64,000 nt of DNA, taken from sequence record NC_014792.1, one strand, 5' to 3'. A program made the translations under genes and the position numbers. Below, one piece after another: positions 4,764-37,072 of the stretch. The notes below the pieces were generated by a model. It saw only the letters and a list, made by a program, of their open reading frames with translations, was not told where the DNA came from and searched no databases. Position 1 is the stretch's first letter, and every line of letters begins with the position of its first letter. The stretch is from Escherichia phage vB_EcoM_VR7.

Positions 4764-4785
4764 AGGGCCGCAAGGCCCTTTATCA
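4764..4785. terminator. Bidirectional terminator between convergent hoc-like and hoc genes
   Basis: GGGCCGCAAGGCCC hairpin with A/T runs on both sides; the minus-strand reading has the stronger T tract. Confidence 0.6.
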
Positions 4786-5889: not shown

Positions 5890-5916
5890 AAAAATCTCCA
5901 AAAGGCCATAGTGGCC

Positions 5917-18992: not shown

Positions 18993-20525
18993 TTATTTTA
19001 ACCCCGTCTGTGACCAGTCGCCAAATACTTCTTCGAAAGTATCTGCCTTATCTTTATCGAATCTGAACCCTTTGATAATCGGAAGGAACAGTTTAACAGT
19101 ATTATCTTTACGAGTTTCAGAAGTCAACCAACCATTACATTCACAGTCAGCAATCATTCCAACCAATTCACCTTTACGAGCCTTAATCATAAGAGCTTCG
19201 CGGTCCATTTCATGACGCTCATCAATTGGGATAATAGCCCATTTCTTAGTCTTCGGGTCTTTGACTTGTGTTGTATCTTTGAAGCCTGACCCACAATTGG
19301 TAACAATTTTACCGCAAGAAGATTGAAGCACAACACCACCAATTTTATTTGGGTCTTTCTCGTGCTCATAGAATCCGATAATTTCCAAAGCGATGTCAAT
19401 AACTTCTTTGAACTTGTACATATTCTTAGAACGCTTGTTTTCCCAAGGAGCTGCAGTGTTTTTAAGAATAATACCTTCGAGCTTTAAAGCAATATATTTC
19501 TTATAGATGGCTTTGGCTTCTTCGAGGTTATTAACCACGTGGTTTTCAATCAGAATCATGCGGTCGTAGCCATGAAGCACCACGTTATCTGCAATCATCT
19601 TCTCTAATACCGCGAACCGCACATCATATTTCAGAGGGTTAAGAATTTTAACATCTGAATACACTTCAATCAACGGAACATAATCCCAGACCTGGAATTT
19701 CATGCCAGCTGCTTCAACCGCAGTGATAGTTCCTTTTAATGATTTGTTCGCTAGACCGTTTGACTTAGTACGAGATTCCGCAGATTCAATTTGAGTCTCG
19801 GCTTGCTCTGTATCATCAAAAAGGAAGGCCAACCCATCATCCTGGACAACTGTTTTCTGTTCATGGTATACTAACTCACCATCAATCAAAACGCCCTCAG
19901 GATGTCTCTCACGCGCTTCACGGGTGGCTTCAATCAATTCCTTTTTAAGAAGGTCAAGCTTAAGATACTCATTTCCAGCGCGGGATAACAATCGAACATC
20001 ATCCAACTCATCGCCACGAACTTCTGCAAAACACCGGGCGCCATCGGCTTTCAATTGTGCAAAGGCCGGGAACTTAATGTTTTTAGCAATACCTGCTTCA
20101 TCGTAAGAAGAAGCAAGCATCTGTGGCTGTTCAGGAATTAAACCTTTCCAAACTTTATTCGCAATCGATACGGATGCCCCACATTCCAGGTCACGCATCA
20201 TCACACGACGCAGGACTTCAACATCATCTTTTTTACCATCAGCAATATAGCCAGATAATTCCTCGATTGCCGCATTACCTGTTAATTTACGAGGGGCTAA
20301 TGTAAATTCGATAAAGTCAAGCATATCACTTATATTCAACATGCCAAAGCTTTGAGTCGTTGTCCCAGGTTTTGGCCATTTCTTGATATAGAACTGAATG
20401 CCTTTGGAATATGTCAAACGATACACACGTTTAAGCGTTTCATTTTCAGAATACGATTCCAGGATAGCTTGTTTCTCTTTCGTAGAATCGGTTGCAGCAA
20501 TTTCATTTAAAATATCTAAAATCAT
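18993..20525 (-). CDS. 30: ATP-dependent DNA ligase gp30
   Basis: 510 aa; strong match to T4 DNA ligase across the protein (MILDILNEIA..., QLKADGARCFAEVRGDELDDVRLLSRAGNEY, C-terminal FEEVFGD). Confidence 0.95.
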   Translation of the reverse strand: MILDILNEIAATDSTKEKQAILESYSENETLKRVYRLTYSKGIQFYIKKWPKPGTTTQSFGMLNISDMLDFIEFTLAPRKLTGNAAIEELSGYIADGKKDDVEVLRRVMMRDLECGASVSIANKVWKGLIPEQPQMLASSYDEAGIAKNIKFPAFAQLKADGARCFAEVRGDELDDVRLLSRAGNEYLKLDLLKKELIEATREARERHPEGVLIDGELVYHEQKTVVQDDGLAFLFDDTEQAETQIESAESRTKSNGLANKSLKGTITAVEAAGMKFQVWDYVPLIEVYSDVKILNPLKYDVRFAVLEKMIADNVVLHGYDRMILIENHVVNNLEEAKAIYKKYIALKLEGIILKNTAAPWENKRSKNMYKFKEVIDIALEIIGFYEHEKDPNKIGGVVLQSSCGKIVTNCGSGFKDTTQVKDPKTKKWAIIPIDERHEMDREALMIKARKGELVGMIADCECNGWLTSETRKDNTVKLFLPIIKGFRFDKDKADTFEEVFGDWSQTGLK

Positions 20526-20535
20526 TAATCACCTC

Positions 20536-20817
20536 TTAGTCGTTGGCTCTATTATATGCCACGTCTTCCAAAAGCAAATCCAGACGCTTATGATAAGTGA
20601 ACACAAATTTCGTGGCACCGTCTGGTTTCATTTTAGTCATGAAGTGAACATAAATGAATCCTTGCTCAACACATTCACGCCAAACGGGATTATCTTTAGC
20701 CGGATTAATATCAAACGAGTAATCATGATTCACATGACGAATAAACTGGTTAACATGACCATAATCCATCGTGGTGGTTGGACCACGGTCAGAAATAGTA
20801 TGAACGACAAACATATT
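20536..20817 (-). CDS. hypothetical protein (T4 30.1 position)
   Basis: About 93 aa from MFVVH; short overlap with the upstream ORF. Confidence 0.4.
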   Translation of the reverse strand, partial: NMFVVHTISDRGPTTTMDYGHVNQFIRHVNHDYSFDINPAKDNPVWRECVEQGFIYVHFMTKMKPDGATKFVFTYHKRLDLLLEDVAYNRAND

Positions 20818-21628
20818 AACCCCTTCCACAGGTCGGTTGATTATACCAGTATTCAATACCAGTACCTACGCCATATTGGTATGGATATGCTGGATTATAT
20901 CCAGGAGTCCATGGCTGACCTGGCTGCCAGCCTTGTTGCATTTGTTGCTGAAGACGTCGAGTTTCACGAAACAGTTCTTCCAGTTTACGGAGTTCATCTG
21001 GTGTGAATTCTGGTTTGGTCGGTTCATCTTTGTGTTTCAGTTTAAGCTGTCCAGCAACATCGTCCCAATTAAAAACTTTGGAAGCTGTTTTAGGAATAGC
21101 ATCACGTTCACCACGAGCCATCCAATAAACCGGAACTGCAAGGATTTCACTCGCATGGTCGCAATGGTGAGCAAGGTCATCAATATAACAAATGACATTA
21201 TATTTGTCTTTTGCCTTCTGGAACAACTCCTCTTTAGAGGCTGTATGACCACACATCATAACTTCTTTAAACGCACCAGGGAACAAAGCATTCAGGTTGA
21301 ATTGACGATTCAGGCGGGCGTCAATGGAATCACCCAGGGCTGTAACGGCCACAAAATCATATTGTTCTTTGAGGTTATTAATAACCCTTAACGCATCTGC
21401 ATAAGGAGACAAATAACGAATAAAATCCGAACAGTTATATTTCTCAATCAACTGTGCGCCCAACTCTTCATCACAATTGAACAGTTTGCCCGGGGTCACA
21501 AATTTTTCATCCTGAATCATCTTAAGGATATGTTCCAGGGGTAAATTGTATTTTTGAGCGAAATAAGGCAAGCCAGATTGCCATGACAAACATACGCCAT
21601 CAATGTCTGTTAAAATAACGGGTTTCAT
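20816..21628 (-). CDS. HAD-like hydrolase/phosphatase (T4 30.2 position)
   Basis: 270 aa; N-terminal LTDIDGV motif typical of HAD phosphatases; Q/P/Y-rich C-terminal tail. Confidence 0.5.
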   Translation of the reverse strand: MKPVILTDIDGVCLSWQSGLPYFAQKYNLPLEHILKMIQDEKFVTPGKLFNCDEELGAQLIEKYNCSDFIRYLSPYADALRVINNLKEQYDFVAVTALGDSIDARLNRQFNLNALFPGAFKEVMMCGHTASKEELFQKAKDKYNVICYIDDLAHHCDHASEILAVPVYWMARGERDAIPKTASKVFNWDDVAGQLKLKHKDEPTKPEFTPDELRKLEELFRETRRLQQQMQQGWQPGQPWTPGYNPAYPYQYGVGTGIEYWYNQPTCGRG

Positions 21629-22092
21629 AATGCATCTCTCAATTGGTTAAGTATGTCAATAAATTCTTGTTCAGTCAATATTGTATCATGAACAGTAAGG
21701 TGGCTCGCCATCGAATGCTTTAAAACTTTGCCCTTTGTAGCTTGTAATGCGTCGCGGAATCCTTTGTTTTGGAGAGCTGCTTCAAAATATGCACTTGTAT
21801 ACAACTCTTTCCATGCTGCAGAGTATCTTGAAAAGGGAATTCCAAGCCAGAAAAGCGTCCCACGGTCCGCAGCTCTTGCATAAGCTCTTCCAGTTTGTTG
21901 TGCGACCAGCCCGGACATCCCAAATATACGTTTTTGTTGTTCATAATTTCTCACCTTGCACCCTTGTAGGAAGCCTTCAAGACCTCCAAACTGGATACCA
22001 TCCATAACAAAAGGCCATTTGGCAAAGTTACTTAATGCGCATGATGGCCACGGGAAATTGCTTCTGATTTCTAACTCAGACATCTTTGACAC
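21625..22092 (-). CDS. probable YbiA/NADAR-family protein (T4 30.3 position)
   Basis: 155 aa; SNF..W and GxxFxxxE...Q..K-like pattern and synteny; weak inference. Confidence 0.4.
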   Translation of the reverse strand: MSKMSELEIRSNFPWPSCALSNFAKWPFVMDGIQFGGLEGFLQGCKVRNYEQQKRIFGMSGLVAQQTGRAYARAADRGTLFWLGIPFSRYSAAWKELYTSAYFEAALQNKGFRDALQATKGKVLKHSMASHLTVHDTILTEQEFIDILNQLRDAL

Positions 22093-22288
22093 TTATAATT
22101 TCGACATCAGCCCAATGGCCATAACCCGGTAGACGGTCCGCAATGGATAATCCGCCGTCAGTTTTGAGCATTTTAATTGTCTTAGTATATGGTTCAATAT
22201 TTCGGGCCCATGGACTTACGTCAGTCACGCGATAAGTCACTTCAACCATTTCTGTGCCCAAAATTTTCTGAATCAATTTCTTAAACAT
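22076..22288 (-). CDS. hypothetical protein
   Basis: 70 aa ORF in the 30.x early block. Confidence 0.4.
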   Translation of the reverse strand: MFKKLIQKILGTEMVEVTYRVTDVSPWARNIEPYTKTIKMLKTDGGLSIADRLPGYGHWADVEIISVKDV

Positions 22289-22289
22289 A

Positions 22290-22484
22290 TTATCCTCGCT
22301 TTAAACATTTGATTACAGACAATTCTTGCCCCATGCGGACGTCTTCAGTTCCATCAACCCACAGGACTGCATAGGCTTCTTTAATGGAAATATTACTCAA
22401 TTTGAAAGCAGGCAGGACCTTGGAAATCATTCCAGGAATACCCACACCTTTTAACTGAACAGTTTGTGATAAGAATAGTTGCAT
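22290..22484 (-). CDS. hypothetical protein
   Basis: 64 aa ORF, tightly packed. Confidence 0.4.
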   Translation of the reverse strand: MQLFLSQTVQLKGVGIPGMISKVLPAFKLSNISIKEAYAVLWVDGTEDVRMGQELSVIKCLKRG

Positions 22485-22771
22485 TAGAACCTCATCTGGA
22501 AACCATGTGATTTGACATTCTTGCCATTAATATCAGATGAATTAATTTCACGTGCCGCGATTGGGTCAATATCAATGTCACGACTAAGCTTGGTGATTGC
22601 CAGAGTATCGCGCCCATTAACAGTCCTGAATTCAACTGGGCAAACTATATCCACATAGTTTTTAATGGATTCTTTAGTTGGTTGCTTATCAGCAGGTACA
22701 CCTGGACCAGCTTTGGAGAAAACAACTTCACAGAAATTTTTACGTGTATCAAAGTAAGTAGTCATAAACAT
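22484..22771 (-). CDS. hypothetical protein
   Basis: About 95 aa from MFMTTYF with GAGGAAAA RBS. Confidence 0.45.
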   Translation of the reverse strand: MFMTTYFDTRKNFCEVVFSKAGPGVPADKQPTKESIKNYVDIVCPVEFRTVNGRDTLAITKLSRDIDIDPIAAREINSSDINGKNVKSHGFQMRF

Positions 22772-22807
22772 AGTATTTTCCTCAAGGGGCTTTCGCCCCA
22801 TTTAAGA

Positions 22808-23173
22808 TTAGATATCAAATTCATTAAGAACTACATCAAAGATTGCTTCCAGGTGTTCAGGTTTTGCTTTGTTGCTCAGAATATGGCGAATCCAAGTTTT
22901 AACCAACAGCTTGCGATTAACACCATTCCAGCAAGGATGAGTACCTAAATCACGTTCGCGGAAATCATCATCTAAAGCAATTTTAAAGTTAGAACCAGTC
23001 ATAGTGATTGAAAGAGTGATACCATTTTCAAATCGCATATAAACGTAGTTGGGAGTCATATACTGTTCAATTTCACACACTGAACCATTTTTATGTTTCC
23101 ATAAACAAATAACTTCAGAAGAACCTGGGATACAGTTAGAAACATATTTGCGTTCAAAGTTGATGTAGTTCAT
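22808..23173 (-). CDS. hypothetical protein
   Basis: 121 aa; RBS and early promoter upstream. Confidence 0.5.
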   Translation of the reverse strand: MNYINFERKYVSNCIPGSSEVICLWKHKNGSVCEIEQYMTPNYVYMRFENGITLSITMTGSNFKIALDDDFRERDLGTHPCWNGVNRKLLVKTWIRHILSNKAKPEHLEAIFDVVLNEFDI

Positions 23174-23244
23174 TTTATTCTCCAGTTGTTTTCATTTGTT
23201 GGTACAGGTCTATAATATCATAACCTGTACCAAAGTAAACTGTT

Positions 23245-23613
23245 TTATGCGACTTTAATCCAATTATCTAAATTTAATTCACCCTTAGCTTTCATTTTTT
23301 CAATCAGATTATCTGCAGTGGTGCGACCATTTTGATACCAGGTTACATCTTCAGAATAACCAGTTTCTTCATCTTCATAGGTCTTACAACGAATCTTACC
23401 AAGAATTAAAGTTTTCAGTTCGTAGGTATCACCAGTAAAAAAGTTTGTTACCATAATTTTCCAGGAGAAGTCATCAGAAGGACCTTCTGGAGTCATGCAA
23501 GAAACGAATTCAAATTGTTCTTTATACAAGTGCCATTGCATTTCTTTAGTTTCAATGGCTTTGTAACCGTCGTGGTCTTTACCTTTGATGTATGAGTTAA
23601 GATTGATTTTCAT
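23245..23613 (-). CDS. hypothetical protein
   Basis: 122 aa; early promoter-like sequence upstream (23620-23690). Confidence 0.5.
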   Translation of the reverse strand: MKINLNSYIKGKDHDGYKAIETKEMQWHLYKEQFEFVSCMTPEGPSDDFSWKIMVTNFFTGDTYELKTLILGKIRCKTYEDEETGYSEDVTWYQNGRTTADNLIEKMKAKGELNLDNWIKVA

Positions 23614-23729
23614 TTTATTCTCCAGTGTTTTATTGTGTAACTCAGTATGGAATCATTATGCACTGGACCAACCCTGTTGTAAACCCCTTTATGGAAAATA
23701 AAAAAAGGGACTCCGAAGAGTCCCTGAAC

Positions 23730-23891
23730 TTATGCTTTCGGCTTACCAAAGCAAGCTGCATCGGCACGCAATACCGCACGAGCACGAGCCTGAAGTTTAT
23801 CAGTTACCTGATTGATTCGCTTGTTGGACGCACGCTTGTAACCAGCGCGTTTGGAGGAGCCATCAACAACTTTAACTTCTTTCTTAGCCAT
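23730..23891 (-). CDS. small highly basic protein (53 aa), not in the ORF track
   Basis: MAKKEVKVVDGSSKRAGYKRASNKRINQVTDKLQARARAVLRADAACFGKPKA; hairpin plus T-run terminator immediately after the stop on the minus strand. Confidence 0.3.
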   Translation of the reverse strand: MAKKEVKVVDGSSKRAGYKRASNKRINQVTDKLQARARAVLRADAACFGKPKA

Positions 23892-23922
23892 ATTAAATTC
23901 TCTTTAAAATAGAATGCAGGAC

Positions 23923-24117
23923 TTATTGACATTGCCTGCGCAAGCCCTCGAAGGGAACATTAGGTTTCGGATATTTAACGACAGGATAACCATAAACCTC
24001 GTCATCATACCAACCACGACTTAGACAGATAACCTTTTTCTGACGCGGGGTAGTACAAAATACATTCAAGAGGTACACCACAAAATTATCGGGGTCTAAA
24101 ACTATAATGATTCGCAA
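23923..24117 (-). CDS. hypothetical protein
   Basis: 64 aa ORF. Confidence 0.3.
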   Translation of the reverse strand: MRIIIVLDPDNFVVYLLNVFCTTPRQKKVICLSRGWYDDEVYGYPVVKYPKPNVPFEGLRRQCQ

Positions 24118-24187
24118 ATCATTAATCAGATAATTCGGTGGCTCCTCGATTTTCTAGCCGCACTTAAGGTAGCGAATCACCTACAGC

Positions 24188-24442
24188 TTACTTCAGGGTT
24201 ACGACAAAATGGCGAACAGCTTTGCGCGCAGCAGATGCCAGCGGCTTAGCAAATTTCAGTTCATCTTTTGCTTCGAGCACTGCGCGAAGGTCGGTTTGAA
24301 TCGGGTTAAGATGTTTGAAATACTGCAGAATTTCCAGTGCTTCGGCTTCAACATCAATAGATGCGCCGTAGTTTTCGTGACCGTTATTCCATGCAGTGCG
24401 TTGCAGTTCGAGAGCGTGTTGTAATTGTTTGTTTAAAGACAT
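24188..24442 (-). CDS. rIII: rIII lysis inhibition accessory protein
   Basis: About 84 aa from MSLNKQLQHALELQRTAWNNGHENYGASIDVEAEALEIL; close match to T4 rIII as recalled. Confidence 0.8.
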   Translation of the reverse strand: MSLNKQLQHALELQRTAWNNGHENYGASIDVEAEALEILQYFKHLNPIQTDLRAVLEAKDELKFAKPLASAARKAVRHFVVTLK

Positions 24443-24599
24443 TTTAGAAGCCTCAATATGAGGTGAATATTTGGTGGACACGTTCTTCTGAATTTCACTT
24501 CCTTTCGGCAAGTCTCTCAGTTGTAGTCCACCGTTTAGGATTCTCCGGGTAACTAACTGGTCCGGCAGCCAATCCATATTATTATTTATAACGCTAATT

Positions 24600-24947
24600 T
24601 TACTTATAAAGACAAGGAACAGCTTTATAATGACAGGTCACAAATTTCTGCTTAACTTCTTTAGCCTGCTTAAGTCCCAGAGCAACCAGAGGATGTGGAA
24701 CGTTTGCAATCTTGCCAACCGGAAGAGGAGTCAAATCACCTACTTCACAGAAGCCTTCAGGAACATCTGGACCAATCGAAAATACTTCACACATCTCTGG
24801 GATTTCACCCTGATGGAGTTTTCCGATAACAATACCTGATGCCGTAGTTTCTTCATCGCCAGCTTGCTTTGGCTCAGAAACCAAAATAATATATTCACCT
24901 ACTGCTTTAATTGGTAATTCCATATTTAATCCATGTTGTTTGGTCAT
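24600..24947 (-). CDS. 31: gp31 co-chaperonin (GroES-like) for capsid folding
   Basis: Strong match to T4 gp31 ([21 protein letters not shown]...CEVGDL..LPVG...[30 protein letters not shown]); the exact start (24947 or the internal MELP) is uncertain. Confidence 0.9.
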
Positions 24948-24978
24948 GTATTAATAATAACACGCGTTGTTTGAAGCA

Positions 24979-25278
24979 TTAAAGGACGAGCAGAGTCTCG
25001 GTCTGTAATCCATTCACAGAAATCAATTTATTGAAACAGAATGAACGCCACTCATTAAGCTTGGTATCAAATACCCTGATATAGCTAACCGGTTCTTTAC
25101 TAGCTTCTGGGCCAGGGGCCTGGATTTCTTTATACGGCAACAGGTCCAGGTCGCGAGTGCAAGTCATACGACGGATACTTCCATCTGCTTTTTCAAACAG
25201 AACTTCGTGAAAACCAACAGACAAGATAGTCTTGACTTTTTCACGGAGGCGAATTGTTTCTTGTTCAGTTAAAATCAT
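24979..25278 (-). CDS. hypothetical protein (T4 31.1 position)
   Basis: 99 aa ORF. Confidence 0.45.
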   Translation of the reverse strand: MILTEQETIRLREKVKTILSVGFHEVLFEKADGSIRRMTCTRDLDLLPYKEIQAPGPEASKEPVSYIRVFDTKLNEWRSFCFNKLISVNGLQTETLLVL

Positions 25279-25280
25279 AA

Positions 25281-25514
25281 TTATTCCAAAACAGTTTTAA
25301 TGGTGGTTGTACCGCGCGATTTTAAAGCGCTCAACAGGTTTTTACATTTTTCAAAAACTGGGTCCGTTTTATACCGGATGCTTTCATCAATCCATTCGGA
25401 TTTATAGTAAGACTTCCAGCGAGAGAAAAAGTTCTTTTTGTATTCTACTGAAAAAGCAATTATACCAGTTCCTCTTGAACTAAGCCCGGATATTTTAACC
25501 ATACGAAATTTCAT
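25281..25514 (-). CDS. hypothetical protein (T4 31.2 position)
   Basis: 77 aa ORF. Confidence 0.4.
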   Translation of the reverse strand: MKFRMVKISGLSSRGTGIIAFSVEYKKNFFSRWKSYYKSEWIDESIRYKTDPVFEKCKNLLSALKSRGTTTIKTVLE

Positions 25515-26095
25515 TATTCACCACAAAATTCGTTAATGTTTTCCCAGTTCAATTTGTCTAGACTACGCTTAGGCACATTGAACACCTCAATTCCTGCATT
25601 CTTCAAGATATCATCCCAACCAGGAATATTCTTGTCATACGTTTCACAGTAAACCAATTTCTTGATTCCTGATTGAGAAATTGCCTTCGCACAATCAGGG
25701 CAAGGAGAAAGCGTTACATACATAGTCGCTCCCTCAATTGACGAACCCATTCTTGCTGCAAACAGAATCGCATTAAGTTCTGCGTGGATTTCGTTGTTCT
25801 TTGACCATGCAGAATGTTCTTCACGATGAGCTTTCGCCAATACAAAACGGTCAACCTTACTGAATCTCACACATTCTGGCTTGTGGCCAGGGACGAGAAC
25901 AGGTTTAGGTTTATTCAGTAACCAACCTTGCTCCTCTGCATGCTCGCAACAGTTAACCCCACCTGCAGGGGAACCATTATACCCTGTAGAAATAATGCGA
26001 CCATTCTTTTCAATAACAGCTCCCACTTTCCAGGAGCAACATTTTGATTCTTGAGATACAAGGTATGCGATTTGCAGAACAGTAGTTGGTTTCAT
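25514..26095 (-). CDS. cd: dCMP deaminase
   Basis: 193 aa; zinc-binding deaminase motifs HAE and PCPDC (CEHAEEQG...HAELNAI...TLSPCPDCAKAI). Confidence 0.9.
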   Translation of the reverse strand: MKPTTVLQIAYLVSQESKCCSWKVGAVIEKNGRIISTGYNGSPAGGVNCCEHAEEQGWLLNKPKPVLVPGHKPECVRFSKVDRFVLAKAHREEHSAWSKNNEIHAELNAILFAARMGSSIEGATMYVTLSPCPDCAKAISQSGIKKLVYCETYDKNIPGWDDILKNAGIEVFNVPKRSLDKLNWENINEFCGE

Positions 26096-26434
26096 TTACA
26101 TCACCATGATATAGGCAGATTTATCAGTTTCAACACGATATAATTCATGTCGCAATTTCGTGATTGATTTAACACGTGAGGTTAATATACCATAACCATC
26201 TTTAAAGCGTTTTTTCTTATCAAAGAATACCACGCCTGCTAATGAATTACCGATTTCAACTGGTAACATAGTCAACAACACGCCATCATAATCAGCTGGG
26301 CTAATGCTTTTAAACAAAGTATCATTCATCAACAAAGCCCGGATAAATTGTATAGCACCATCAGAGAGACCGCGATGGTCTCCATCCTTGTCTTCCTGTA
26401 ATGCAGTGGTAATAGCTTCTACTAAACTAATCAT
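26096..26434 (-). CDS. hypothetical protein (cd.x block)
   Basis: 112 aa ORF. Confidence 0.45.
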   Translation of the reverse strand: MISLVEAITTALQEDKDGDHRGLSDGAIQFIRALLMNDTLFKSISPADYDGVLLTMLPVEIGNSLAGVVFFDKKKRFKDGYGILTSRVKSITKLRHELYRVETDKSAYIMVM

Positions 26435-26664
26435 TGAATATACACTCGCTGCGCTTCAACCAGACCATCAGAACCCAATTTCAATTGAGTAAACTGGTCA
26501 CCATCTTTTGGATTAATGACAATCATAAAACTGCGTGCAGATTCCTGAATAACTTTCAAAGTTGCATCAGGAAATCGCTGTGATACGCGGTTAATCATCG
26601 CTTGAGCAAATGCCTTCACTTTTTCATGGAACTCTTCAACAGTAATTGGGGTTTCGCTAAGCAT
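26431..26664 (-). CDS. hypothetical protein (cd.x block)
   Basis: 77 aa ORF, 4 nt overlaps with neighbours. Confidence 0.45.
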   Translation of the reverse strand: MLSETPITVEEFHEKVKAFAQAMINRVSQRFPDATLKVIQESARSFMIVINPKDGDQFTQLKLGSDGLVEAQRVYIQ

Positions 26665-27206
26665 CAGATTGTCTCCTGTTTTACTTGTTTAACGATAGAA
26701 GCTTTTGTTATATCGCCTTTGATAATATAACAATCTTCTGCAGTACCACGGTTTAACAGGCGCTCTGCTTCGTCTTCCGCATATTCTTTTGACACATGAC
26801 GAGAGTTAATCTCAATCTTGCCATTTTTAACCACAAGCAATTTCCAAACTGATGCAAGTTTTACTGGCACAGGTTCAACTTCTGGCTTAACACCAACTTC
26901 CGCCTGGATGAAATAATCAAATTCATCAGACAATGGACCAGCAGAAACAAACAGCGCACCATGATGCCTGTTCTGTGTGCTAGATATTTTTGCCAAATCC
27001 ACAAAATCATTTTCATCAATCAAACGAATCTCACAAACTTTTCTTCCACCGCTGATGGTATCAGGTACAATTTTCACTTCAAACGGAGTCATACCGATGT
27101 ATCCAGCAATTTGGTAATTAGCTGCCCAGCCTCCGGCAATAAATTGTTTTTTGGCATTTTCAGACGTGAACTTGTAAAACTTACCTTCTTCAAAGAAATC
27201 ACTCAT
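26664..27206 (-). CDS. hypothetical protein (cd.x block)
   Basis: 180 aa; GAGGAAAA RBS and early promoter-like sequence upstream. Confidence 0.5.
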   Translation of the reverse strand: MSDFFEEGKFYKFTSENAKKQFIAGGWAANYQIAGYIGMTPFEVKIVPDTISGGRKVCEIRLIDENDFVDLAKISSTQNRHHGALFVSAGPLSDEFDYFIQAEVGVKPEVEPVPVKLASVWKLLVVKNGKIEINSRHVSKEYAEDEAERLLNRGTAEDCYIIKGDITKASIVKQVKQETI

Positions 27207-27272
27207 TTTGTTTTCCTCATGTGTTGATGAAATTCATTATACACCATCCATGGTGAAAGTAAACACTTTAAA

Positions 27273-27551
27273 TTAAATTGCTTCTGCAATTGCAGTTTGA
27301 TTCTGGAAGTCAACCTTACAAGAAACAGTCAAGGTAGCTCCATCAATTTTGAATGGAACAATTGCAAATGCTGCACCAGGGTGGAGCTGGACAGTGATTG
27401 CATCAACTGCATCCGGGAACATGATTTCCAGAATAGCAGACAAACGACCATGCACTTTTAGTTCAGTCGACACGTCGACGATTTCGTATAGATAATCAGA
27501 TACAATCTGACTAAAAACTAATTTAACAATTTCAGAATATGTAGGAAACAT
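27273..27551 (-). CDS. hypothetical protein
   Basis: 92 aa ORF downstream of a middle promoter. Confidence 0.45.
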   Translation of the reverse strand: MFPTYSEIVKLVFSQIVSDYLYEIVDVSTELKVHGRLSAILEIMFPDAVDAITVQLHPGAAFAIVPFKIDGATLTVSCKVDFQNQTAIAEAI

Positions 27552-27593
27552 TTCTTTTCTCGCTTAGTTATTGGGGTTATCCAAAGGACCTAG

Positions 27594-27623
27594 ACCCATT
27601 ATAACATAAAATTTTTAAAGCAT
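27594..27623 (-). promoter_or_regulatory. MotA-dependent middle promoter
   Basis: Minus strand reads TGCTTTA, 12 nt, TATAAT, then GGGTCTAGGTCC. Confidence 0.5.
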
Positions 27624-27838
27624 TAATGGACGGTGTGAACCCGAACATCAACAACGAATCGGTCGGTGATTTCGACCATCGGTGCAAACTCTACATGATA
27701 TTCACCTTTATATCTTGTGTTCATATCATTACGAATTTTTACCAGCTCATTAATCAGGGCAGGTGACATTCCTTGCCCAGCTAGTTTGTTAAGGAAGCCG
27801 TATGCTTCCTCTTTAATTTCATCGTGTTTATCGTACAT
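27623..27838 (-). CDS. hypothetical protein
   Basis: About 71 aa from MYDKHDEIKEE; start choice uncertain. Confidence 0.35.
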   Translation of the reverse strand: MYDKHDEIKEEAYGFLNKLAGQGMSPALINELVKIRNDMNTRYKGEYHVEFAPMVEITDRFVVDVRVHTVH

Positions 27839-28040
27839 AATGCTCTTCCAGGAAGTCCAGGAGGGCCGTGGCGGAGGTAAAGATACCACCATCAACCTTG
27901 TCTTCATCTTGATAGTCCATCACATCCAGACCGATACGTCCATCAGTTAGCGGCCATACGCTGAAAAAGTATTCATAACCTTTTTCAATTTCTTCAATCT
28001 TGCGAAAAATCTTTTCGATATTGTTCATAGGTTTCCACAT
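27828..28040 (-). CDS. hypothetical protein
   Basis: About 70 aa from MWKPMNNIEK; start choice uncertain. Confidence 0.35.
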   Translation of the reverse strand: MWKPMNNIEKIFRKIEEIEKGYEYFFSVWPLTDGRIGLDVMDYQDEDKVDGGIFTSATALLDFLEEHYVR

Positions 28041-28054
28041 CTCTACTACTTGAG

Positions 28055-28062
28055 TATAAATA
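28055..28062 (+). promoter_or_regulatory. Late promoter (TATAAATA) driving the HNH endonuclease gene
   Basis: Exact TATAAATA 27 nt before the ATG, with GAGGA RBS. Confidence 0.55.
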
Positions 28063-28088
28063 TAGTATATCACCAAAGAGGACATACA

Positions 28089-29928
<1,840 letters not shown>

Positions 29929-29932
<4 letters not shown>

Positions 29933-30411
29933 ACACCAAGCTCCTTATAAAGTTCTTCGCGACAAGTTTTCAGAATTTTACCAGTTTCATAAGCTGTGCT
30001 TTCAGAAACATCACCAAGTGCAGCGGCAGCTTGCATTTGGCCATGGCGTTTAGCAGCATATTCAAAACTTTTTACTAGCTCACGAATACGTTCTTTTTCA
30101 TTGTATTCTTCAATAAATTCTGGATATTCCCAAACAGGTCGCATCATACGATACCACAGTTGGATGGTAATATAATTACTTCCATCCAGATTAATAATTT
30201 GTGAAGGCTTAATAGCGCCAGGAGCATAAAAAGTTACCTGTCTTACTACATCAATACCATCCACAATAGCCCAAGCAAAATCGAAGGTGGCCTTCTTTTC
30301 AATTGGCGTGCTCGCACAAGACCCTAACTTTAAGAGCTTTTGTAATACAGGAGATTTAACTCCTGAAATGTACACAGGATTAGCTACAAAGCTGTTATCA
30401 CGTAATGACAT
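29929..30411 (-). CDS. hypothetical protein
   Basis: About 160 aa from MSLRDNSF; GAGGAAA RBS and early promoter upstream. Confidence 0.45.
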
Positions 30412-30576
30412 AATAGTTTCCTCAAATATTTTATAATCCGTAGGAGCATTATACTCTGCTCCCAAGAGTTTGTAAACTACTTACCAAAAAGACCATCAAT
30501 ACACATGCTGAATACAATTCCAAAACAAAAGCATGCAAAACCCAATCTAAAAACATCCCAGCCATCGATACAGGCT

Positions 30577-30870
30577 TCAATCATGGCAACGCTCCTCTTT
30601 TAGTTCAGAACGATAATAACATAACATACCTTTTTGGTCATGTACATATCTTTTTACATCATTCATCCAAATCCTGAATTCTTGCGATGCTTCAAAAGGC
30701 ATACCAACCCAGGCTTGACCGTCAATAACCTTCACTTCCCATTGCTGACGGTATTCCATTAATGTCTGTGGCCAATTAGGATGAACTTGAATTGTGGGCT
30801 CCGCAACGGGCTTCTGGGCACATGAAACGAGTCCAATAGCCAAACATACTGCCATGATAGATTTCATCAT
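30577..30870 (-). CDS. o-spanin (outer membrane lipoprotein, Rz1-like; T4 pseT.2 equivalent)
   Basis: 97 aa; signal peptide with lipobox LVSC; directly downstream of, and overlapping, the i-spanin gene. Confidence 0.65.
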   Translation of the reverse strand: MMKSIMAVCLAIGLVSCAQKPVAEPTIQVHPNWPQTLMEYRQQWEVKVIDGQAWVGMPFEASQEFRIWMNDVKRYVHDQKGMLCYYRSELKEERCHD

Positions 30871-31220
30871 TTGGTGAGCTCCTGGAAGTCCTGGGCGAAC
30901 TTATCAAAGGACTGATTAATCTGTTTTTCAACTAATTTAGGCTTAGCTGCCACAACCTTAGTACGTTTTGCATCTACACGAAGTTTATCATTTTCCTTCT
31001 GCAGAAGTTCAACATATTCCTGGCGCTCCTGGTCAAGGAGATTAATTTGATTAACCTGGTCTTTTACTGATTGCAGATTTTTCGCGTTATCTTCTGCAAC
31101 TTTGGTGACCGCAGCCACCTCTGTCTTGAGATTATCCACTTTTGCTTTTAGATAGAAACCACTACCAGCAGTTACTACCAGGGCGAGCATAAGCCCCGCA
31201 GTGATATTACTTATTTGCAT
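30867..31220 (-). CDS. i-spanin (inner membrane, Rz-like; T4 pseT.3 equivalent)
   Basis: 117 aa; N-terminal transmembrane helix then a charged coiled-coil-like periplasmic domain. Confidence 0.65.
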   Translation of the reverse strand: MQISNITAGLMLALVVTAGSGFYLKAKVDNLKTEVAAVTKVAEDNAKNLQSVKDQVNQINLLDQERQEYVELLQKENDKLRVDAKRTKVVAAKPKLVEKQINQSFDKFAQDFQELTK

Positions 31221-31711
31221 AACTTGATGATTACCTCAACAATATCATCCTGGGATAAACCATTCAGGAGGATGTGATTTGTACTGTCAGATGCTGAAAT
31301 GCGGAACTGATTACCAACTTCATCCGCCATATCATCCTGGGTTAACACTGGATGTTTAATTCCCAGGCGGTGTTGAAGTGTCAGGGGTTCAACCACAACA
31401 TAACAAACACATCCATTGATATGCACATTAGGTTGGGTCTGATTGATGAACACTTCTGCATCATATTTAACCAAATGGTTCTTTAAGAAGTCAACCATTT
31501 CAGGAACAGATTCATGAAGTGCTTCTTTACGCTCTTCTGATTTCTTATTGCGATATTCCTTCTGTTTGGTCTTCAACTTATTATCAGACGCCAGTTTCTT
31601 TCTTAAGTCAGTAAGGAACCCAACATTTTTGGAACCTTTATAAACATAGATTCCGTCATGGCGGTCACCATATACATCAACAATCATTTCATTTGAAATC
31701 AGTTGCATATT
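31211..31711 (-). CDS. alc: Alc (inhibitor of host transcription on cytosine-containing DNA)
   Basis: 167 aa from MNMQLISNEM, the same length as T4 Alc; position between rnlA and the pseT block; the track start at 31813 is rejected. Confidence 0.55.
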   Translation of the reverse strand, partial: NMQLISNEMIVDVYGDRHDGIYVYKGSKNVGFLTDLRKKLASDNKLKTKQKEYRNKKSEERKEALHESVPEMVDFLKNHLVKYDAEVFINQTQPNVHINGCVCYVVVEPLTLQHRLGIKHPVLTQDDMADEVGNQFRISASDSTNHILLNGLSQDDIVEVIIKLCK

Positions 31712-31724
31712 CATAATATTTTCC

Positions 31725-31958
31725 TCAATAGCGGTTATAACCTCTAGGACCAAAAGAGTTTGCACCCAGGCGCTCATCTTTCTTTTTGGCTCTTGCTCTA
31801 AACCCAGAATCACCTGTTTGGTCTTTCAGTTCTTTTAACAATTTGGCCTTCAGGTCAGTAATGAAACCAATCCGGCGGTCTCCCTTGTAGACATAGATTC
31901 CATCATTTCTGTCACCATATGCCTTTGTAACTCTGTCATTTGAAATTAAGTTTAACAT
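31725..31958 (-). CDS. truncated Alc N-terminal-domain paralog
   Basis: About 77 aa; LISNDRVTKAYGDRNDGIYVYKGDRRIGFITDLKAKL closely parallels alc residues LISNEMIVDVYGDRHDGIYVYKGSKNVGFLTDLRKKL; similarity is also visible at DNA level. Confidence 0.45.
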   Translation of the reverse strand: MLNLISNDRVTKAYGDRNDGIYVYKGDRRIGFITDLKAKLLKELKDQTGDSGFRARAKKKDERLGANSFGPRGYNRY

Positions 31959-32029
31959 GTTTTGGTCCTCATCAGTAGTTGATGGAACCATTATGTATAG
32001 AAAGAAGGGGCTTGTACACCCCTTTTTTA

Positions 32030-33166
32030 TTATTCAGGCAGGATTACATCCGCTTGGTAGTCCGCTGGGATGTAAAGTTTATGATTTTTAAGGAAAACAT
32101 TATTGATTTGAGCGATGGTTTGCTCTGTTTCCTGGGGACGTTGATACGTGTTCATTAATACGGAGAACAAACCCGGATATGGTTTACACAGTTCTTGACC
32201 TTTAATCGCAAACTCGCGTCGGTCTTTTCCTGCCAACTGTTTCTGGGCATCAAGCAACAGTCCCAGGGTATTGGACAGATAATCCAGATGGGTCAAAGTA
32301 AAGGCATTAACTTTTTCACGAGCATAATCATCGCCAGTAAACATGGCAATAACATCATCTGCACCGCCTGCGACAACAACTTCAAAAAGACGCTGGTTAT
32401 TGTTAACAGAATCCTTTGTATGGTGTAAAGCACAATACCATTCTGTCTTAACTTTAAATTTGCGACCATCGACCAGCTCATAGACAAAGCCTTCAATCTC
32501 TTTCATATCACGGACGTTTTCAATTGTAGCCGGGTCATATGCTTCAACCAGGAATGGGCGAAGCGCGGCATCTTTAAACAAATCCCGATAAGGGATATAT
32601 TCACCAGTTTCATTATGGCGAACGTTCAGTAAAATCAGGTCACGTTCCTGGTAAGGCAAAACAATGCGGTTGGTTGGCGCAACATATTCCATATTGCATG
32701 TATAACCAGCTTCAGTAATTTCAGTTACACGCTCACGGAAAGCTATACGGTGTTCTTGTTTGAATACCTGCAGGGCTTCTGCTGCCTGGGAGCTTTTGAT
32801 TGACCCTTTGGATTTAAAAGCAATATTGGTCTGGTCCATATAAGTGGAGACAAGAGAGCCATCAGCCTTGGTCATGACCAGCGCAACTTCATCCATATTG
32901 ATATCCATGGTCAACGGATTTTCGCCCAAGTTAAAGAACTTTTCCATAGGACGAGCCGCAATACGAACTGGACCATCTGCATCCATTTCAAACATAATGC
33001 CACGGCACTCTAATGCATCATCAAGGAGCCAATCACTATAGGAAGCATAGTTATAGCTAAAGATGCGGAACTTAGTTTCAAATGGAGAAACGAAATCAGT
33101 ATAGAAAAACTTACCTTTTTCAGATTCAGCGCACAGCTTCATTAAGTTGTCATATAATTCAATCAT
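32030..33166 (-). CDS. rnlA: RNA ligase 1
   Basis: 378 aa; strong match to T4 Rnl1 (FRIFSYNYASYSDWLL.DALECRGIMFEMD...TKADGSLVSTY). Confidence 0.95.
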   Translation of the reverse strand: MIELYDNLMKLCAESEKGKFFYTDFVSPFETKFRIFSYNYASYSDWLLDDALECRGIMFEMDADGPVRIAARPMEKFFNLGENPLTMDINMDEVALVMTKADGSLVSTYMDQTNIAFKSKGSIKSSQAAEALQVFKQEHRIAFRERVTEITEAGYTCNMEYVAPTNRIVLPYQERDLILLNVRHNETGEYIPYRDLFKDAALRPFLVEAYDPATIENVRDMKEIEGFVYELVDGRKFKVKTEWYCALHHTKDSVNNNQRLFEVVVAGGADDVIAMFTGDDYAREKVNAFTLTHLDYLSNTLGLLLDAQKQLAGKDRREFAIKGQELCKPYPGLFSVLMNTYQRPQETEQTIAQINNVFLKNHKLYIPADYQADVILPE

Positions 33167-33579
33167 TTCTTCACCTTATGTTGGTAGTTCCACGGGGGAT
33201 TAAAAAGCTTTATGAACATCGGCTCTTCCAGAGACATAGTTTCGACTGACATCGTACCAAGTTCATTGGTCATTGATAGATTGAAACATTGTCGTGCATA
33301 GAATACCACCTTTTGACCTGCATGTAAAGCTTCATGTATCATCCGGGATTTGTTTGAATCACTCGTTTGTTCTATACGATTGATTGCAGTCCGGTAATAA
33401 TTGATTCGCTTCTTCAGGTTGTTCGTCTTACCAATATACACTAGTTCATCGTCAACTGAAATAGCGTAGATAACATTTTTCTTGTTCGCGAGTGTAAGGG
33501 TAGGGATTTTACCATCGACTAACTCTAACTCCGCATATTTTATAAAACTGTATTCGTCAGCGATTTGTTTCATAGACAA
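33163..33579 (-). CDS. denA: endonuclease II (GIY-YIG nuclease)
   Basis: 138 aa; GIY-YIG-like motif VIYAISVDDELVYIGKTNNLKKRINYY; T4 denA position between rnlA and nrdB. Confidence 0.7.
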   Translation of the reverse strand: MSMKQIADEYSFIKYAELELVDGKIPTLTLANKKNVIYAISVDDELVYIGKTNNLKKRINYYRTAINRIEQTSDSNKSRMIHEALHAGQKVVFYARQCFNLSMTNELGTMSVETMSLEEPMFIKLFNPPWNYQHKVKK

Positions 33580-33581
33580 AA

Positions 33582-33598
33582 AGGGCCGAAGCCCTTTC
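33582..33598 (-). terminator. Hairpin terminator between nrdB and denA
   Basis: GGGCCGAAGCCC hairpin with T-run on the minus strand. Confidence 0.5.
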
Positions 33599-33599
33599 C

Positions 33600-34778
33600 T
33601 TATAGATATTTACGGAAACCAGCAAGAACATTCTCATCGACGTCATTGTCAATCTGGGCTACCAGGTAAGCGGACAACTCAACTTCTTGTGGCGCAGATT
33701 GCACATTATCAGAATTGAGATATTCGCGAATCCATGGAATCGGGTGCTTAGTAGATTCTAACACGATTTCACAAGGGAGACCGCATTGCTTCATACGAGA
33801 AACTGTCAGGTAATCGATGAACCGGTTAAGAATCTCGACGCTCAGCCCGGGGAGTCCACCATCTTTAAACAGATGCACAGCCCATTCTTTTTCCTGACGA
33901 TTGACTTCCATGAAAATAGCTGCGGCTTCTGCTTCACATTCGTGAGCAATTTTAACCCATTCGTCACCGTCAACACCAGTCTGCAGCTGACGAAGAATAT
34001 ATTGGGTTCCCTTAAGGTGGAGCTGCTCATCACGTGCGATGAACTTCATTATCTTCGCATTGCCTTCCATGATTTCCATGTTCTTATGGAAGTTGAAAGT
34101 ACAAGCAAAAGATACATAAAAACGAATTGCTTCCAGGGCGTTAATGACATGCAGGCAGAGATAAAGAGATTTCATCAATGCTCGTTTGGCAATAGCTTCT
34201 TGTTTGATAGCTCGTTCCAAACGTTGGTCCACTTCGGGAGTTTCTTTGGCCAGTTCAACAAAAGCAATCTGGTTTTGCCATTGACGAGTTTTATTCAGAA
34301 CATCATCATAGTAATAGCCAATTGATTCGGCTCGCTTCATGATTGCATCATCTAACAGGATTTCGTCGAATACCTTCGCCGGGTCTGTATAGAGATTTCG
34401 CATGATGTGTGTATAAGAACGAGAGTGAATTGTCTCGCTGAATGTCCAGGTCTGAATCCATGTATCAAGACTCGGGTCAGAAACTAATGCGGCTAATGCT
34501 GCAGCCGGAGCACGACCCTGGATACTGTCCAGAAGTGATTGGTACTTCAGGTTATTGGTAAAAATATTTTGTTGATGTTCAGGAAGCTTATTAAATTGAG
34601 CTCCGTCCATCATCAGGTTTACTTCCTCGGGCCGCCAGAAGAATGACAATTGCTTTTCTGTTAATTCTTCAAAAACTTTATGACGCTGGATATCATAACG
34701 GGCGATGCCCAATCCTGAACCAAAAAACATCGGCTCGGCTAAAACATCCACCGGAGTGGTATTAAAAACTGTACTCAT
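33600..34778 (-). CDS. nrdB: ribonucleotide reductase small subunit (uninterrupted, no intron)
   Basis: 392 aa continuous ORF; strong match to class Ia R2 and T4 NrdB. Confidence 0.95.
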   Translation of the reverse strand: MSTVFNTTPVDVLAEPMFFGSGLGIARYDIQRHKVFEELTEKQLSFFWRPEEVNLMMDGAQFNKLPEHQQNIFTNNLKYQSLLDSIQGRAPAAALAALVSDPSLDTWIQTWTFSETIHSRSYTHIMRNLYTDPAKVFDEILLDDAIMKRAESIGYYYDDVLNKTRQWQNQIAFVELAKETPEVDQRLERAIKQEAIAKRALMKSLYLCLHVINALEAIRFYVSFACTFNFHKNMEIMEGNAKIMKFIARDEQLHLKGTQYILRQLQTGVDGDEWVKIAHECEAEAAAIFMEVNRQEKEWAVHLFKDGGLPGLSVEILNRFIDYLTVSRMKQCGLPCEIVLESTKHPIPWIREYLNSDNVQSAPQEVELSAYLVAQIDNDVDENVLAGFRKYL

Positions 34779-34816
34779 TTTATTTCCTCAATAGCTCATC
34801 CATGAGCATAATTATA

Positions 34817-37072
34817 TCAAAGTTTACAAGCGGAGCAGTCTTCTGCTTTAGGAGCTTCGATTTCGTAATCGTCTGTTCCGGAACCGTCTCTAGTGTTATG
34901 ATAATAAAGGTTTTTTCCACCAAAATACCAGAAGTACATCAAGTCGTCAAGCATAACTGACATCGGAACTTTTCCTTTCGGAAAAATCTGTGGGTCATAG
35001 TATGTGTTTGCTGAAGCTGATTGACATACCCATTTCAACATAATAGCTACCATCGTAAGATAAGGTTTATTACCTTTCTTAGCTAGCACCCATGCATAAT
35101 CGTACAATCCTTTATTGTGCTCAATATTGGGCACGACTTGATTAAAGGAACCCTCTTTTGACTCTTTAATAGAGACTGGTCCACGCGGAGGTTCGATACC
35201 GTTTGTACTGTTAGAAACTTGGGAAGATGACTCACAAGGCATAAGTGCTGATAATGTGCTATTACGGATGCCATATGCAACCAGGTCTTCCCGCAACTGC
35301 GCCCAGTCACAAACGTAGTTTGGAGCTGCGATTTGGTCAATCTTTTTATTGTACCAGTCGATAGGTAATTCGCCTCGAGCCCAACGAGTGTCTGAATAAT
35401 ATTCGCAAGGTCCTTTTTCTTTGGCGAGCTTGATTGATGCTCGGATAAGGCCATATTGTAATCTCTCAAATAATTCATGGGTTAAATCGTTTGCATCAGC
35501 GTAAGAAGCGAAATTGCTTGCCAGCCATGCAGCATAGTTAGTAACCCCAACACCCAGGTTACGGCGTTTTTTGGCTTTCAGAGCTTCTTTAACCGGATAA
35601 CCTTGGTAGTCCAACAGGTTATCAAGAGCACGAACTTGAACTTCAGCCAGCTCGTTAATCTTGTCTTGGTCCTGCCAGTCAAAACTATCCAGAACAAATG
35701 CAGACAATGTGCACAATCCGATTTCAGCGTCTTCACTGTTTACATCAGTAGTCGGGATTGCAATTTCACAACATAAATTCGATTGACGAATCGGAGCCTT
35801 ATCGCGGATGAACGGAGTATAGTCATTCACATTATCAACGAACTGCGGATAAACTCGGGCAGTGCCGGAACGTTCGGTCATGAATAATTCGAACAGGTCT
35901 TTTGCTTTGATGCGCTTCTTACGAACTGTCGGGTCTTTTTCCAAGGCTTCGTATAACTCACGGAATTTATCCGGGTTATCAAAATATGAATAATACAATT
36001 CACCACCGGCTTCGTGTGGACTAAACAGAGTGATGTAATCATTCTTAGCCAGTCGTTCCATCATCAGGTTATTCAACTGAACACCATAGTCCATATGTCT
36101 GATGCGGTTTTCTTCAACGCCCTTGTTGTTCTTCAGAACGAGTAAATTTTCAACTTCCAAATGCCATAAAGGATAATAAGCAGTAGCAGCGCCGCCACGG
36201 ATTCCACCTTGTGAACAGGATTTAACAGCCGTTTGGAAATGTTTCCAGAACGGAATAACACCAGTATGCTTGACTTCACCCATACCGATTTTCGAACCTT
36301 CAGCACGAATCATGCCAACGTTGATACCGATACCCGCCCGCTTACTGATATATTCGATGATTGAATTGGCGGTCTTATTGATTGACTTCAGGGAGTCAGC
36401 AGCTTCGATAACCACACAGGAACTGAACTGCCGGGTAGGTGTTCTGGCGCCCGCCATGATAGGTGTGGGCAACGAAACCTGTCTTGTGGATACTGCATCA
36501 TAAAAACGGCAAACGTGCTTCAGACGGTCCGTTGGTTCATCCTGGTGCAGTGCCATGCCGATAGCCATGATAGCGAATTGCGGAGTCTCGTAGATTTTAC
36601 CGGTGGTTTTATCTTTAACCAGGTATTTCTCTTTCAACTGCATCGCGCCTGCATAAGTCAGGTCAAAATCACGTTCGTGTTTGATACGAGATTCCAGATA
36701 AGTAATCTCTTCGGCGGAGTAGCTTGACAACAGTTCCGGGTCATATTTGCCTTCATTGACACAATAAGAAATCTGGTCAATAAAAGAACGTGGCTCGAAC
36801 TGACCATAGACATCTTTACGCAGAGCAAACATCGTAGCTTTGGCCGCAACATATTGGTAATCTGGTTCTTCAACCGAGATAAGTCCAGCAGACACTTTGA
36901 TGATAACCGTCTGAATATCGCGAGTAGTCATACCATCGCGCAGATGTGGTTTGATTGTTTCGTATAATTCATACGGGTCGATATTAGTTCCTTCACATGA
37001 CCAGGAAAGAACTTTAATAATTTTCTGGCCATCAAAATCTTGAGATACGCCACTACTTTTTTGTACTTGCAT
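34817..37072 (-). CDS. nrdA: ribonucleotide reductase large subunit
   Basis: 751 aa; near-identical to T4 NrdA over long stretches (GIGINVGMIRAEGSKIGMGEV, C-terminal CSACKL). Confidence 0.95.
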   Translation of the reverse strand: MQVQKSSGVSQDFDGQKIIKVLSWSCEGTNIDPYELYETIKPHLRDGMTTRDIQTVIIKVSAGLISVEEPDYQYVAAKATMFALRKDVYGQFEPRSFIDQISYCVNEGKYDPELLSSYSAEEITYLESRIKHERDFDLTYAGAMQLKEKYLVKDKTTGKIYETPQFAIMAIGMALHQDEPTDRLKHVCRFYDAVSTRQVSLPTPIMAGARTPTRQFSSCVVIEAADSLKSINKTANSIIEYISKRAGIGINVGMIRAEGSKIGMGEVKHTGVIPFWKHFQTAVKSCSQGGIRGGAATAYYPLWHLEVENLLVLKNNKGVEENRIRHMDYGVQLNNLMMERLAKNDYITLFSPHEAGGELYYSYFDNPDKFRELYEALEKDPTVRKKRIKAKDLFELFMTERSGTARVYPQFVDNVNDYTPFIRDKAPIRQSNLCCEIAIPTTDVNSEDAEIGLCTLSAFVLDSFDWQDQDKINELAEVQVRALDNLLDYQGYPVKEALKAKKRRNLGVGVTNYAAWLASNFASYADANDLTHELFERLQYGLIRASIKLAKEKGPCEYYSDTRWARGELPIDWYNKKIDQIAAPNYVCDWAQLREDLVAYGIRNSTLSALMPCESSSQVSNSTNGIEPPRGPVSIKESKEGSFNQVVPNIEHNKGLYDYAWVLAKKGNKPYLTMVAIMLKWVCQSASANTYYDPQIFPKGKVPMSVMLDDLMYFWYFGGKNLYYHNTRDGSGTDDYEIEAPKAEDCSACKL

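Follow-up and report, generated by a model that had tools for sequence, protein, structure and literature searches.

Immediately upstream of alc in the window (the whole 64-kb stretch of DNA analysed here) lies a short open reading frame, alcB, which raises the question of whether it is a gene in its own right and, if so, what a protein that keeps only the N-terminal part of Alc might do. Alc, which is produced early in infection, causes termination by the RNA polymerase (RNAP) of E. coli on dC-DNA but not on modified DNA; its action requires dispensable region I of the RNAP beta subunit, and its mechanism is unresolved (PMC2988021). A sequence-only reading of this DNA had described the ORF as a tandem truncated paralog of alc, and had proposed that its product could act on Alc as a dominant-negative protein or decoy, or that it could be a decaying duplication.

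The 951-bp region around alcB and the full-length alc gene, alcA, is 99.3% identical to Escherichia phage vB_EcoM_VR25 (Gaprivervirus) and 93–99% identical to 31 other Gaprivervirus-type records (Straboviridae, Tevenvirinae), and the window is colinear with VR25 from ~107 kb of the VR25 record to the end of the record. The order on the minus strand is denA, rnlA, alcB, alcA, pseT.3 and pseT.2 (the spanin genes), two hypothetical ORFs, and pseT (Table 1); neither of these hypothetical ORFs had a match in Pfam. alcB ends 10 nt upstream of alcA, and the succession of rnlA and then alc (or alcB where present) is common to every relative examined. Colinearity with the VR25 annotation also places a MobE-like homing endonuclease gene at ~28090–28815 on the plus strand, converging on pseT (28728–29636, minus strand) and overlapping its 3' end by ~87 nt, and, at window positions ~3900–5900, two adjacent Hoc-like head-decoration genes on opposite strands beside a collagen-repeat 'tail fiber' gene.

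Table 1. Features of the alcB–alcA locus, in window coordinates.
Feature	Position	Strand	Description	Basis
alcB	31725..31958	minus	77 aa; ATG at 31958, TGA at 31727-31725	ORF list, BLASTP, Pfam ALC, phrog_17715, pN/pS, homologs in diverged lineages, AF2 model
alcA	31211..31714	minus	167-aa full-length Alc, inhibitor of host transcription	Pfam ALC, phrog_1253, AF2 mean pLDDT 93.2, alc/alca annotation in VR25 and SP18
alcB-alcA junction	31715..31727	minus	alcB stop TGA overlaps alcA Shine-Dalgarno GAGGA (31726-31722), 7 nt before alcA ATG (31714)	
Early-promoter-like site upstream of alcB	31990..32018	minus	TGTACA, 17 nt, CATAAT	Consensus scan
Terminator-like hairpin 3' of rnlA	32005..32024	minus	AAGGGGTGTACAAGCCCCTT then CTTTCT; overlaps the -35-like hexamer	
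Leader hairpin	31963..31990	minus	alcB Shine-Dalgarno (GAGGA, 31970-31966) paired with sequence immediately past the -10	
rnlA (RNA ligase 1)	32030..33166	minus	Upstream neighbour	
pseT.3 (Rz-like i-spanin)	30867..31220	minus	Downstream neighbour; 10-nt overlap with the 3' end of alcA	

The sequence-only reading had placed an ORF of about 77 codons at 31725–31958, adjoining alc, and both the ORF list and the sequence confirm its position. Aligning the two ORFs, as that reading had suggested, confirmed their homology: BLASTP gave 48% identity between AlcB and AlcA across 62 residues (E=6e-18), and AlcB is 51% identical to the T4-type Alc over residues 2–56. AlcB alone passed the gathering cutoff of the Pfam ALC family (PF17527; curated cutoff, 25 bits), with 37.1 bits (E=3e-9) across positions 3–62 of the 177-position profile, and AlcA scored 174.5 bits (E=2e-51) across positions 1–176. 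Profile-profile comparison matched AlcB residues 2–57 to Alc residues 3–58 (probability 99.5%, E=4e-22). AlcB residues 1–77 matched positions 1–77 of the 77-position profile of phrog_17715, a short 'inhibitor of host transcription' family (E=3e-54), and AlcA was assigned to phrog_1253. The invariant residues of the Alc N-module (I5, G15, D19, G20, I21 and G31) are all kept in AlcB. BLASTP, Pfam and profile-profile comparison thus agree that the short ORF is a paralog of alc, arranged in tandem with it and truncated to the N-terminal part.

The extent of the duplication differs from what had been proposed. The duplication is real at the protein level, but the homology reaches residues ~57–62 rather than ending after 35–40 residues. 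It is also detectable at the DNA level, but weakly so: alcB and alcA share ~62% nucleotide identity over the first 40 codons, and residues common to the two proteins are mostly encoded by different codons, indicating an old duplication rather than a recent repeat. Recent gene conversion between the 5' ends of alcB and alcA was rejected, since the identity is ~62% within and between genomes alike. In a neighbour-joining tree of the N-module (46 positions), AlcB sequences cluster apart from AlcA with 41% bootstrap support, and the tree did not resolve the placement of the AlcB group among Alc sequences.

The alcB ATG is preceded by a Shine-Dalgarno sequence, GAGGA, at a spacing of 7 nt. An alternative start that would give an 88-aa product (ATG at 31991) was rejected because the extension contains an in-frame TAA in SP18, P896 and DCP80. 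We also rejected, as a gene-calling artefact, a longer alcA of 188–200 aa (GTG at 31813) or an AlcB–AlcA frameshift fusion: the extended frame has a pN/pS of 0.85–1.35, its residues are not conserved, and in the metagenomic locus L024 it is closed by a stop codon 7 codons upstream of the ATG of alcA. The extended form is called in P8, DCP80, M719, P0003 and P0004, and appears in the window as a 200-aa ORF at 31211–31813 on the minus strand.

As a gene, alcB is already known from GenBank and PHROGs. The record of Shigella phage SP18 (GQ981382) names the pair alcb and alca, with the note 'similar to N-terminal region of bacteriophage JS98 Alc inhibitor of host transcription' for alcb, and RefSeq VR25 labels both genes 'inhibitor of host transcription'. 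Our literature search found no paper on the alcb/alca pair or analysing alcB.

We next considered how widely alcB is distributed. A tblastn search with AlcB matched 789 phage records, always at alc. Only 33–34 of these, all of Gaprivervirus type, have two alc-like places, and a diverged AlcB query gave the same result. Among the phages listed with a single place are T4, RB32 and JS98; the earlier statement that T4 has one alc was therefore correct, and the suggested comparison with other T4-like genomes limits the second place to Gaprivervirus-type records. A single alc lies ~60 nt past rnlA in T4-type phages, JS98 (Dhakavirus), Mosigvirus, Winklervirus, Kanagawavirus and Gelderlandvirus, and the nearest single-alc relatives, whose AlcA is 63% identical, lack alcB. 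By contrast, the alcB ORF is intact in all of the Gaprivervirus-type records (32–33). A disrupted alc, unrelated to alcB, occurs in the Tequatrovirus Escherichia phage Shinka, where it is annotated as two CDS (151 aa and 39 aa).

Beyond the isolates, the metagenomic loci L022, L023 and L024 each carry a 77–78-aa ORF between rnlA and alcA. In the two metagenomic lineages for which the locus was seen, AlcA is 78–80% identical to that of the window, and AlcB only 47–50%. A third diverged lineage, P0041, is known from the protein alone and has a 78-aa AlcB. Across these three lineages AlcB is 77–78 aa long with 46–50% identity. When 1.84 billion representative proteins were searched with an HMM, eight matched, of which the short ones are AlcB or frameshifted variants; this search found no further short relatives besides frameshifted singletons. 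A search of IMG/VR returned VR25, VR26 and VR20 only. The limitation of alcB to Gaprivervirus and a few uncultured relatives indicates a single origin in their ancestor.

If alcB were a decaying duplication or recombination scar, that is, an eroding and non-functional remnant, we would expect a broken ORF and a pN/pS near 1. alcB has neither. Across 12 Gaprivervirus-type loci its pN/pS is 0.12–0.13, close to the 0.11 of alcA, and for codons 41–77 it is 0.06 (pS ~0.2). Read in its other two frames, the alcB sequence gives pN/pS values of 1.35 and 8.2, and variable sites are distributed 5/2/17 over the three codon positions. We found no overlapping element that could be the source of this signal by site scan, frame comparison or Rfam scan. 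AlcB is truncated, its last ~20 residues have no detectable similarity to Alc, and one metagenomic sequence, the variant P0002, is frameshifted in the tail, all of which would fit decay; however, the ORF is intact at 77–78 aa in 32–33 isolates and three diverged lineages, purifying selection (pN/pS 0.13) acts in its own frame only, a tail motif is kept at 46–50% overall identity, and a good Shine-Dalgarno sequence has been retained. We therefore abandon the suggestion of decay, which we consider scarcely credible, and conclude that alcB is very probably a functional protein-coding gene and not a pseudogene.

Comparison of the window with the diverged lineages, for which synonymous sites are saturated, gave a dN of 0.49–0.59 for alcB and 0.15–0.18 for alcA, indicating that AlcB is evolving ~3x faster than AlcA. 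Within the genus, a local divergence hot spot extends over ~31540–31780, from alcB codon ~60 to alcA codon ~58. Here window/SP18-type and VR20/RZ-type sequences differ at up to 30% of nucleotides, with 0–5% difference in the flanks. The AlcA N-module occurs in two allelic versions within the genus (~10 amino-acid differences, pS 0.32), and the C-terminal 105 residues of AlcA are nearly invariant (pN/pS 0.01). The hot spot looks like a recombination mosaic.

AlcB consists of the Alc N-module (residues 1 to ~49) and a basic, Gly/Pro-rich tail that ends in ...RLGANSFGPRGYNRY. The divergence into a basic tail had been noticed from the sequence alone, and residues 37–77 indeed contain 12 K/R against 5 D/E. 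The ~20 terminal residues are unrelated to Alc. The tail reads GFRARAKKKDERLGANSFGPRGYNRY in the window, GFGWKKPQRPVRRHGANSFGPGTENKF in L022, GFGWRKPKPVRRLGRNSFGPDGLNKF in L024 and CFSRPKVKPFRRGQANTFGPNGENKF in P0041, and a C-terminal motif, R-x-G-x-x-N-S/T-F-G-P...N-K/R-F/Y, is kept across the AlcB lineages; we found no occurrence of this motif elsewhere in the window. An origin of the tail from frameshifted alc was unsupported: when the last ~22 AlcB residues from three lineages were compared with the three frames of 11 alc genes, the scores equalled the median of shuffled controls, with no similarity above those controls in any frame.

Structure prediction is consistent with this division. 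An AF2 model of AlcA, built from a 35-sequence alignment (mean pLDDT 93.2), comprises an N-module (helix 8–15, hairpin 23–33), a helix of ~47 residues (34–80) and an alpha/beta domain (87–166). The AF2 model of AlcB comprises the Alc N-module and a helix at 33–49, with pLDDT of ~91–93 in blocks 11–40, and thus holds the helix and the beta-hairpin together with ~15 residues from the start of Alc's long helix. The model and the alignment agree that ~110 of the 167 residues of Alc have no counterpart in AlcB, namely most of the long helix and the entire C-terminal alpha/beta domain. The tail, modelled with pLDDT of 51–58, is probably disordered. With these parts missing, AlcB is unlikely to be a terminator by itself, and since the three-part architecture of the Alc terminator (N-module, long helix, C-terminal domain) is not present in AlcB, the name Alc-type terminator is not appropriate for it.

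A sequence search of the PDB found no Alc structure, a fold search with the AlcB model gave no match, and fold searches were uninformative on the N-module. The AlcB profile also matched two large repeat proteins that resemble surface proteins, P0038 (1414 aa) and P0039 (1163 aa), with E-values of 7e-5 and 1e-3 that are inflated by 3–7 repeats. Their repeats (...TNNGDGTYTYVNERGVSVIIDVPADV...) weakly resemble the N-module hairpin motif of Alc, DGIYVYKG..R.GF..DL. The resemblance is probably beta-hairpin convergence; the repeats could be a distant source of the N-module.

We then looked for signals that might govern expression of the pair. In single-alc phages, a Shine-Dalgarno sequence and an early promoter of the T4 type (GTTTACA, 17 nt, TAnnnT) lie in the spacer between rnlA and alc, and an early promoter occurs at this position in T4-like, JS98, CHI14, CIP9, Melville and moha phages. 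In alcB phages, a corresponding early-promoter-like/Shine-Dalgarno cassette precedes alcB, with a canonical GTTTAC in L022 and L024. The corresponding site in the window, TGTACA-17-CATAAT (32018–31990), looks like a candidate ancestral early promoter. A promoter-pattern scan returned 10 sites against 8.2 expected, so that as a pattern the window match is no better than chance and the candidate is backed solely by its position and by comparison with relatives. The site is embedded in the terminator-like hairpin past rnlA.

The predicted RNA fold of 31930–32040 has a z-score of -2.46. The 5' arm of the leader hairpin lies mostly upstream of the inferred transcription start, suggesting that the alcB Shine-Dalgarno sequence would be hidden only in read-through RNA from rnlA. 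Hairpins of different sequence that likewise sequester the Shine-Dalgarno sequence precede alcB in L022 and L024, and alc in single-alc phages. The pairing partner is promoter-spacer sequence in RB32/T4-type phages, JS98, CHI14, CIP9, Melville and the P0007 contig, and sequence on or past the -10 in the window, L022 and L024. This conserved design is seen among loci L014–L020, L022, L024 and L028, with arms that vary yet stay complementary; the pairing was not seen in moha or in the P0008 contig.

The spacer between alcB and alcA is 10–13 nt long, and the layout TGAGGA-N7-8-ATG is also found in the diverged loci L022, L023 and L024, such that the overlap of stop codon and Shine-Dalgarno sequence is kept in all lineages for which the locus was seen. 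A consensus scan found no promoter-like site on the minus strand inside alcB, inspection by eye found no MotA box (TGCTT) or late promoter (TATAAATA) inside it, and an Rfam scan of 29500–33700 returned nothing relevant. Because the alcA Shine-Dalgarno sequence overlaps the alcB stop, the two genes are probably co-expressed, and the arrangement of these signals points to a bicistronic early alcB–alcA mRNA. The same conserved overlap would be expected if alcB were a leader ORF, the translation of which opens or couples translation of alcA while the peptide itself is irrelevant. However, alcB is constrained at the amino-acid level and conserves a motif, RNA structure at the junction is not unusual (z=+0.77), leaving no particular structure to open, and alc is expressed without such a leader in single-alc relatives. 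A role as leader ORF alone is hardly tenable, and we regard this reading and the pseudogene reading as essentially excluded.

What might a conserved protein of this kind do? The best-supported reading, to which we give roughly even weight as a whole, is that AlcB is a selected early accessory or modulator within the pathway of Alc. A second copy of approximately the first 57 codons of alc would have been gained by the common ancestor of Gaprivervirus and its few uncultured relatives. This copy would have held the ancestral alc position behind rnlA, with what appear to be the original early promoter and Shine-Dalgarno-sequestering leader, and full-length alcA would have come to lie directly downstream, its ribosome-binding site overlapping the alcB stop. 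A single early mRNA would then supply both AlcB and AlcA within minutes of the start of infection. The most likely mode of action is that AlcB binds whatever the Alc N-module binds, either the elongation complex of host RNA polymerase or Alc, with the tail perhaps making a further contact, to a host protein or to nucleic acid, and in this way AlcB might tune or assist the Alc-dependent shutoff of host transcription. That AlcB reaches the same partner as the Alc N-module is an extrapolation, and we hold any particular direction of effect, helping or antagonising Alc, much less firmly.

The fast divergence of AlcB and its new tail are equally compatible with a function that has moved away from Alc. 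The main rival to a role as accessory or modulator is that AlcB is a neofunctionalised paralog, in which the N-module serves only as a scaffold and the task of the tail has nothing to do with Alc termination; the tail might bind nucleic acid, for instance, or act on the nucleoid, a defence system or some other host protein. We consider this possible, though short of probable. The tail is unrelated to Alc yet bears the most distinctive conserved motif of the protein, AlcB diverges ~3x faster than AlcA, and the separate AlcB clade in the N-module tree (bootstrap 41%) is consistent with a distinct function. By contrast, the tight and conserved coupling to alcA, through both the promoter region and the stop/Shine-Dalgarno overlap, suggests a common pathway, and all of the invariant residues of the Alc N-module have been retained.

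One particular form of modulation is the dominant-negative or decoy action raised in the sequence-only reading, in which AlcB would fill the docking site of the N-module and so limit or delay AlcA. An N-module that comes without the helix and the C-terminal domain is what such an antagonist might look like, and the inferred co-expression from the same mRNA, with alcB upstream of alcA, would supply it alongside its target. However, an antagonist that is translated first from its target's own early mRNA has no obvious advantage, there is no indication of which Alc module docks on RNA polymerase, and a pure decoy leaves the conserved tail motif unexplained. We therefore consider this subcase of the modulator reading unlikely.

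The restricted distribution of alcB also coincides with a putative peculiarity of DNA chemistry. By the T4 gene order, gene 42 and beta-gt are expected between uvsX and imm, and alpha-gt between genes 47 and 55. In VR25 (19000–36000), neither gene 42 nor beta-gt is annotated in the uvsX–imm interval, which is occupied by an unrelated hypothetical ORF of 167 aa; a Pfam search with this ORF, which lies at the expected gene 42 site, gave no match. The VR25 annotation likewise has no alpha-gt between genes 47 and 55. This agrees with two comparative studies, which report that Gaprivervirus has none of the known enzymes of hmC synthesis but retains Alc, DenA, DenB and dCTPase (PMC8056088, PMC12115623). 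Possession of alcB thus goes together with the reported lack of this pathway, which is a correlation only. Conceivably, AlcB adapts the Alc system of this lineage to a changed DNA chemistry, in which case an extra N-module protein may retune or shield the discrimination by Alc between host and phage templates; we think this distinctly improbable.

Beyond the existing annotation, our analysis adds evidence of conservation and selection for alcB, its probable co-expression with alc, and a conserved tail motif peculiar to its product. Together, these properties make alcB a legitimate experimental target rather than annotation noise. A natural protein that consists of the N-module without the rest of Alc, in a clade reported to be without the hmC pathway, would be a cheap probe of the binding partner of the N-module. 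If AlcB does reflect a change in DNA chemistry, this natural 'split' of Alc would show which module docks on RNA polymerase, and would offer a handle on a mechanism that has gone unexplained for ~30 years.

With respect to known systems, SP18 alcb (GQ981382, SP18gp241), VR25 gp201, 'VR7 gp243' and phrog_17715 are the same gene as alcB, with nothing different; they are 94–100% identical, and likewise lie between rnlA and alca. AlcB resembles T4 Alc (PF17527, phrog_1253), a dC-DNA-specific terminator, in its N-terminal ~57 residues, its place behind rnlA and its candidate early-promoter context. Unlike T4 Alc, it is without most of the long helix and without the C-terminal domain, and has a new conserved tail. 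Other truncated regulatory isoforms or paralogs are Tn5 Inh, the lambda S107 antiholin and the eukaryotic 'microproteins'; these are products of the same gene as their partners, made via alternative starts, and their antagonism has been demonstrated. By analogy only, AlcB is like Tn5 Inh, the S107 antiholin and the microproteins in being a short protein that keeps one interaction module of a larger effector and is, probably in its case, co-expressed with it. By contrast with all of these, alcB is a separate, diverged cistron that encodes its own tail.
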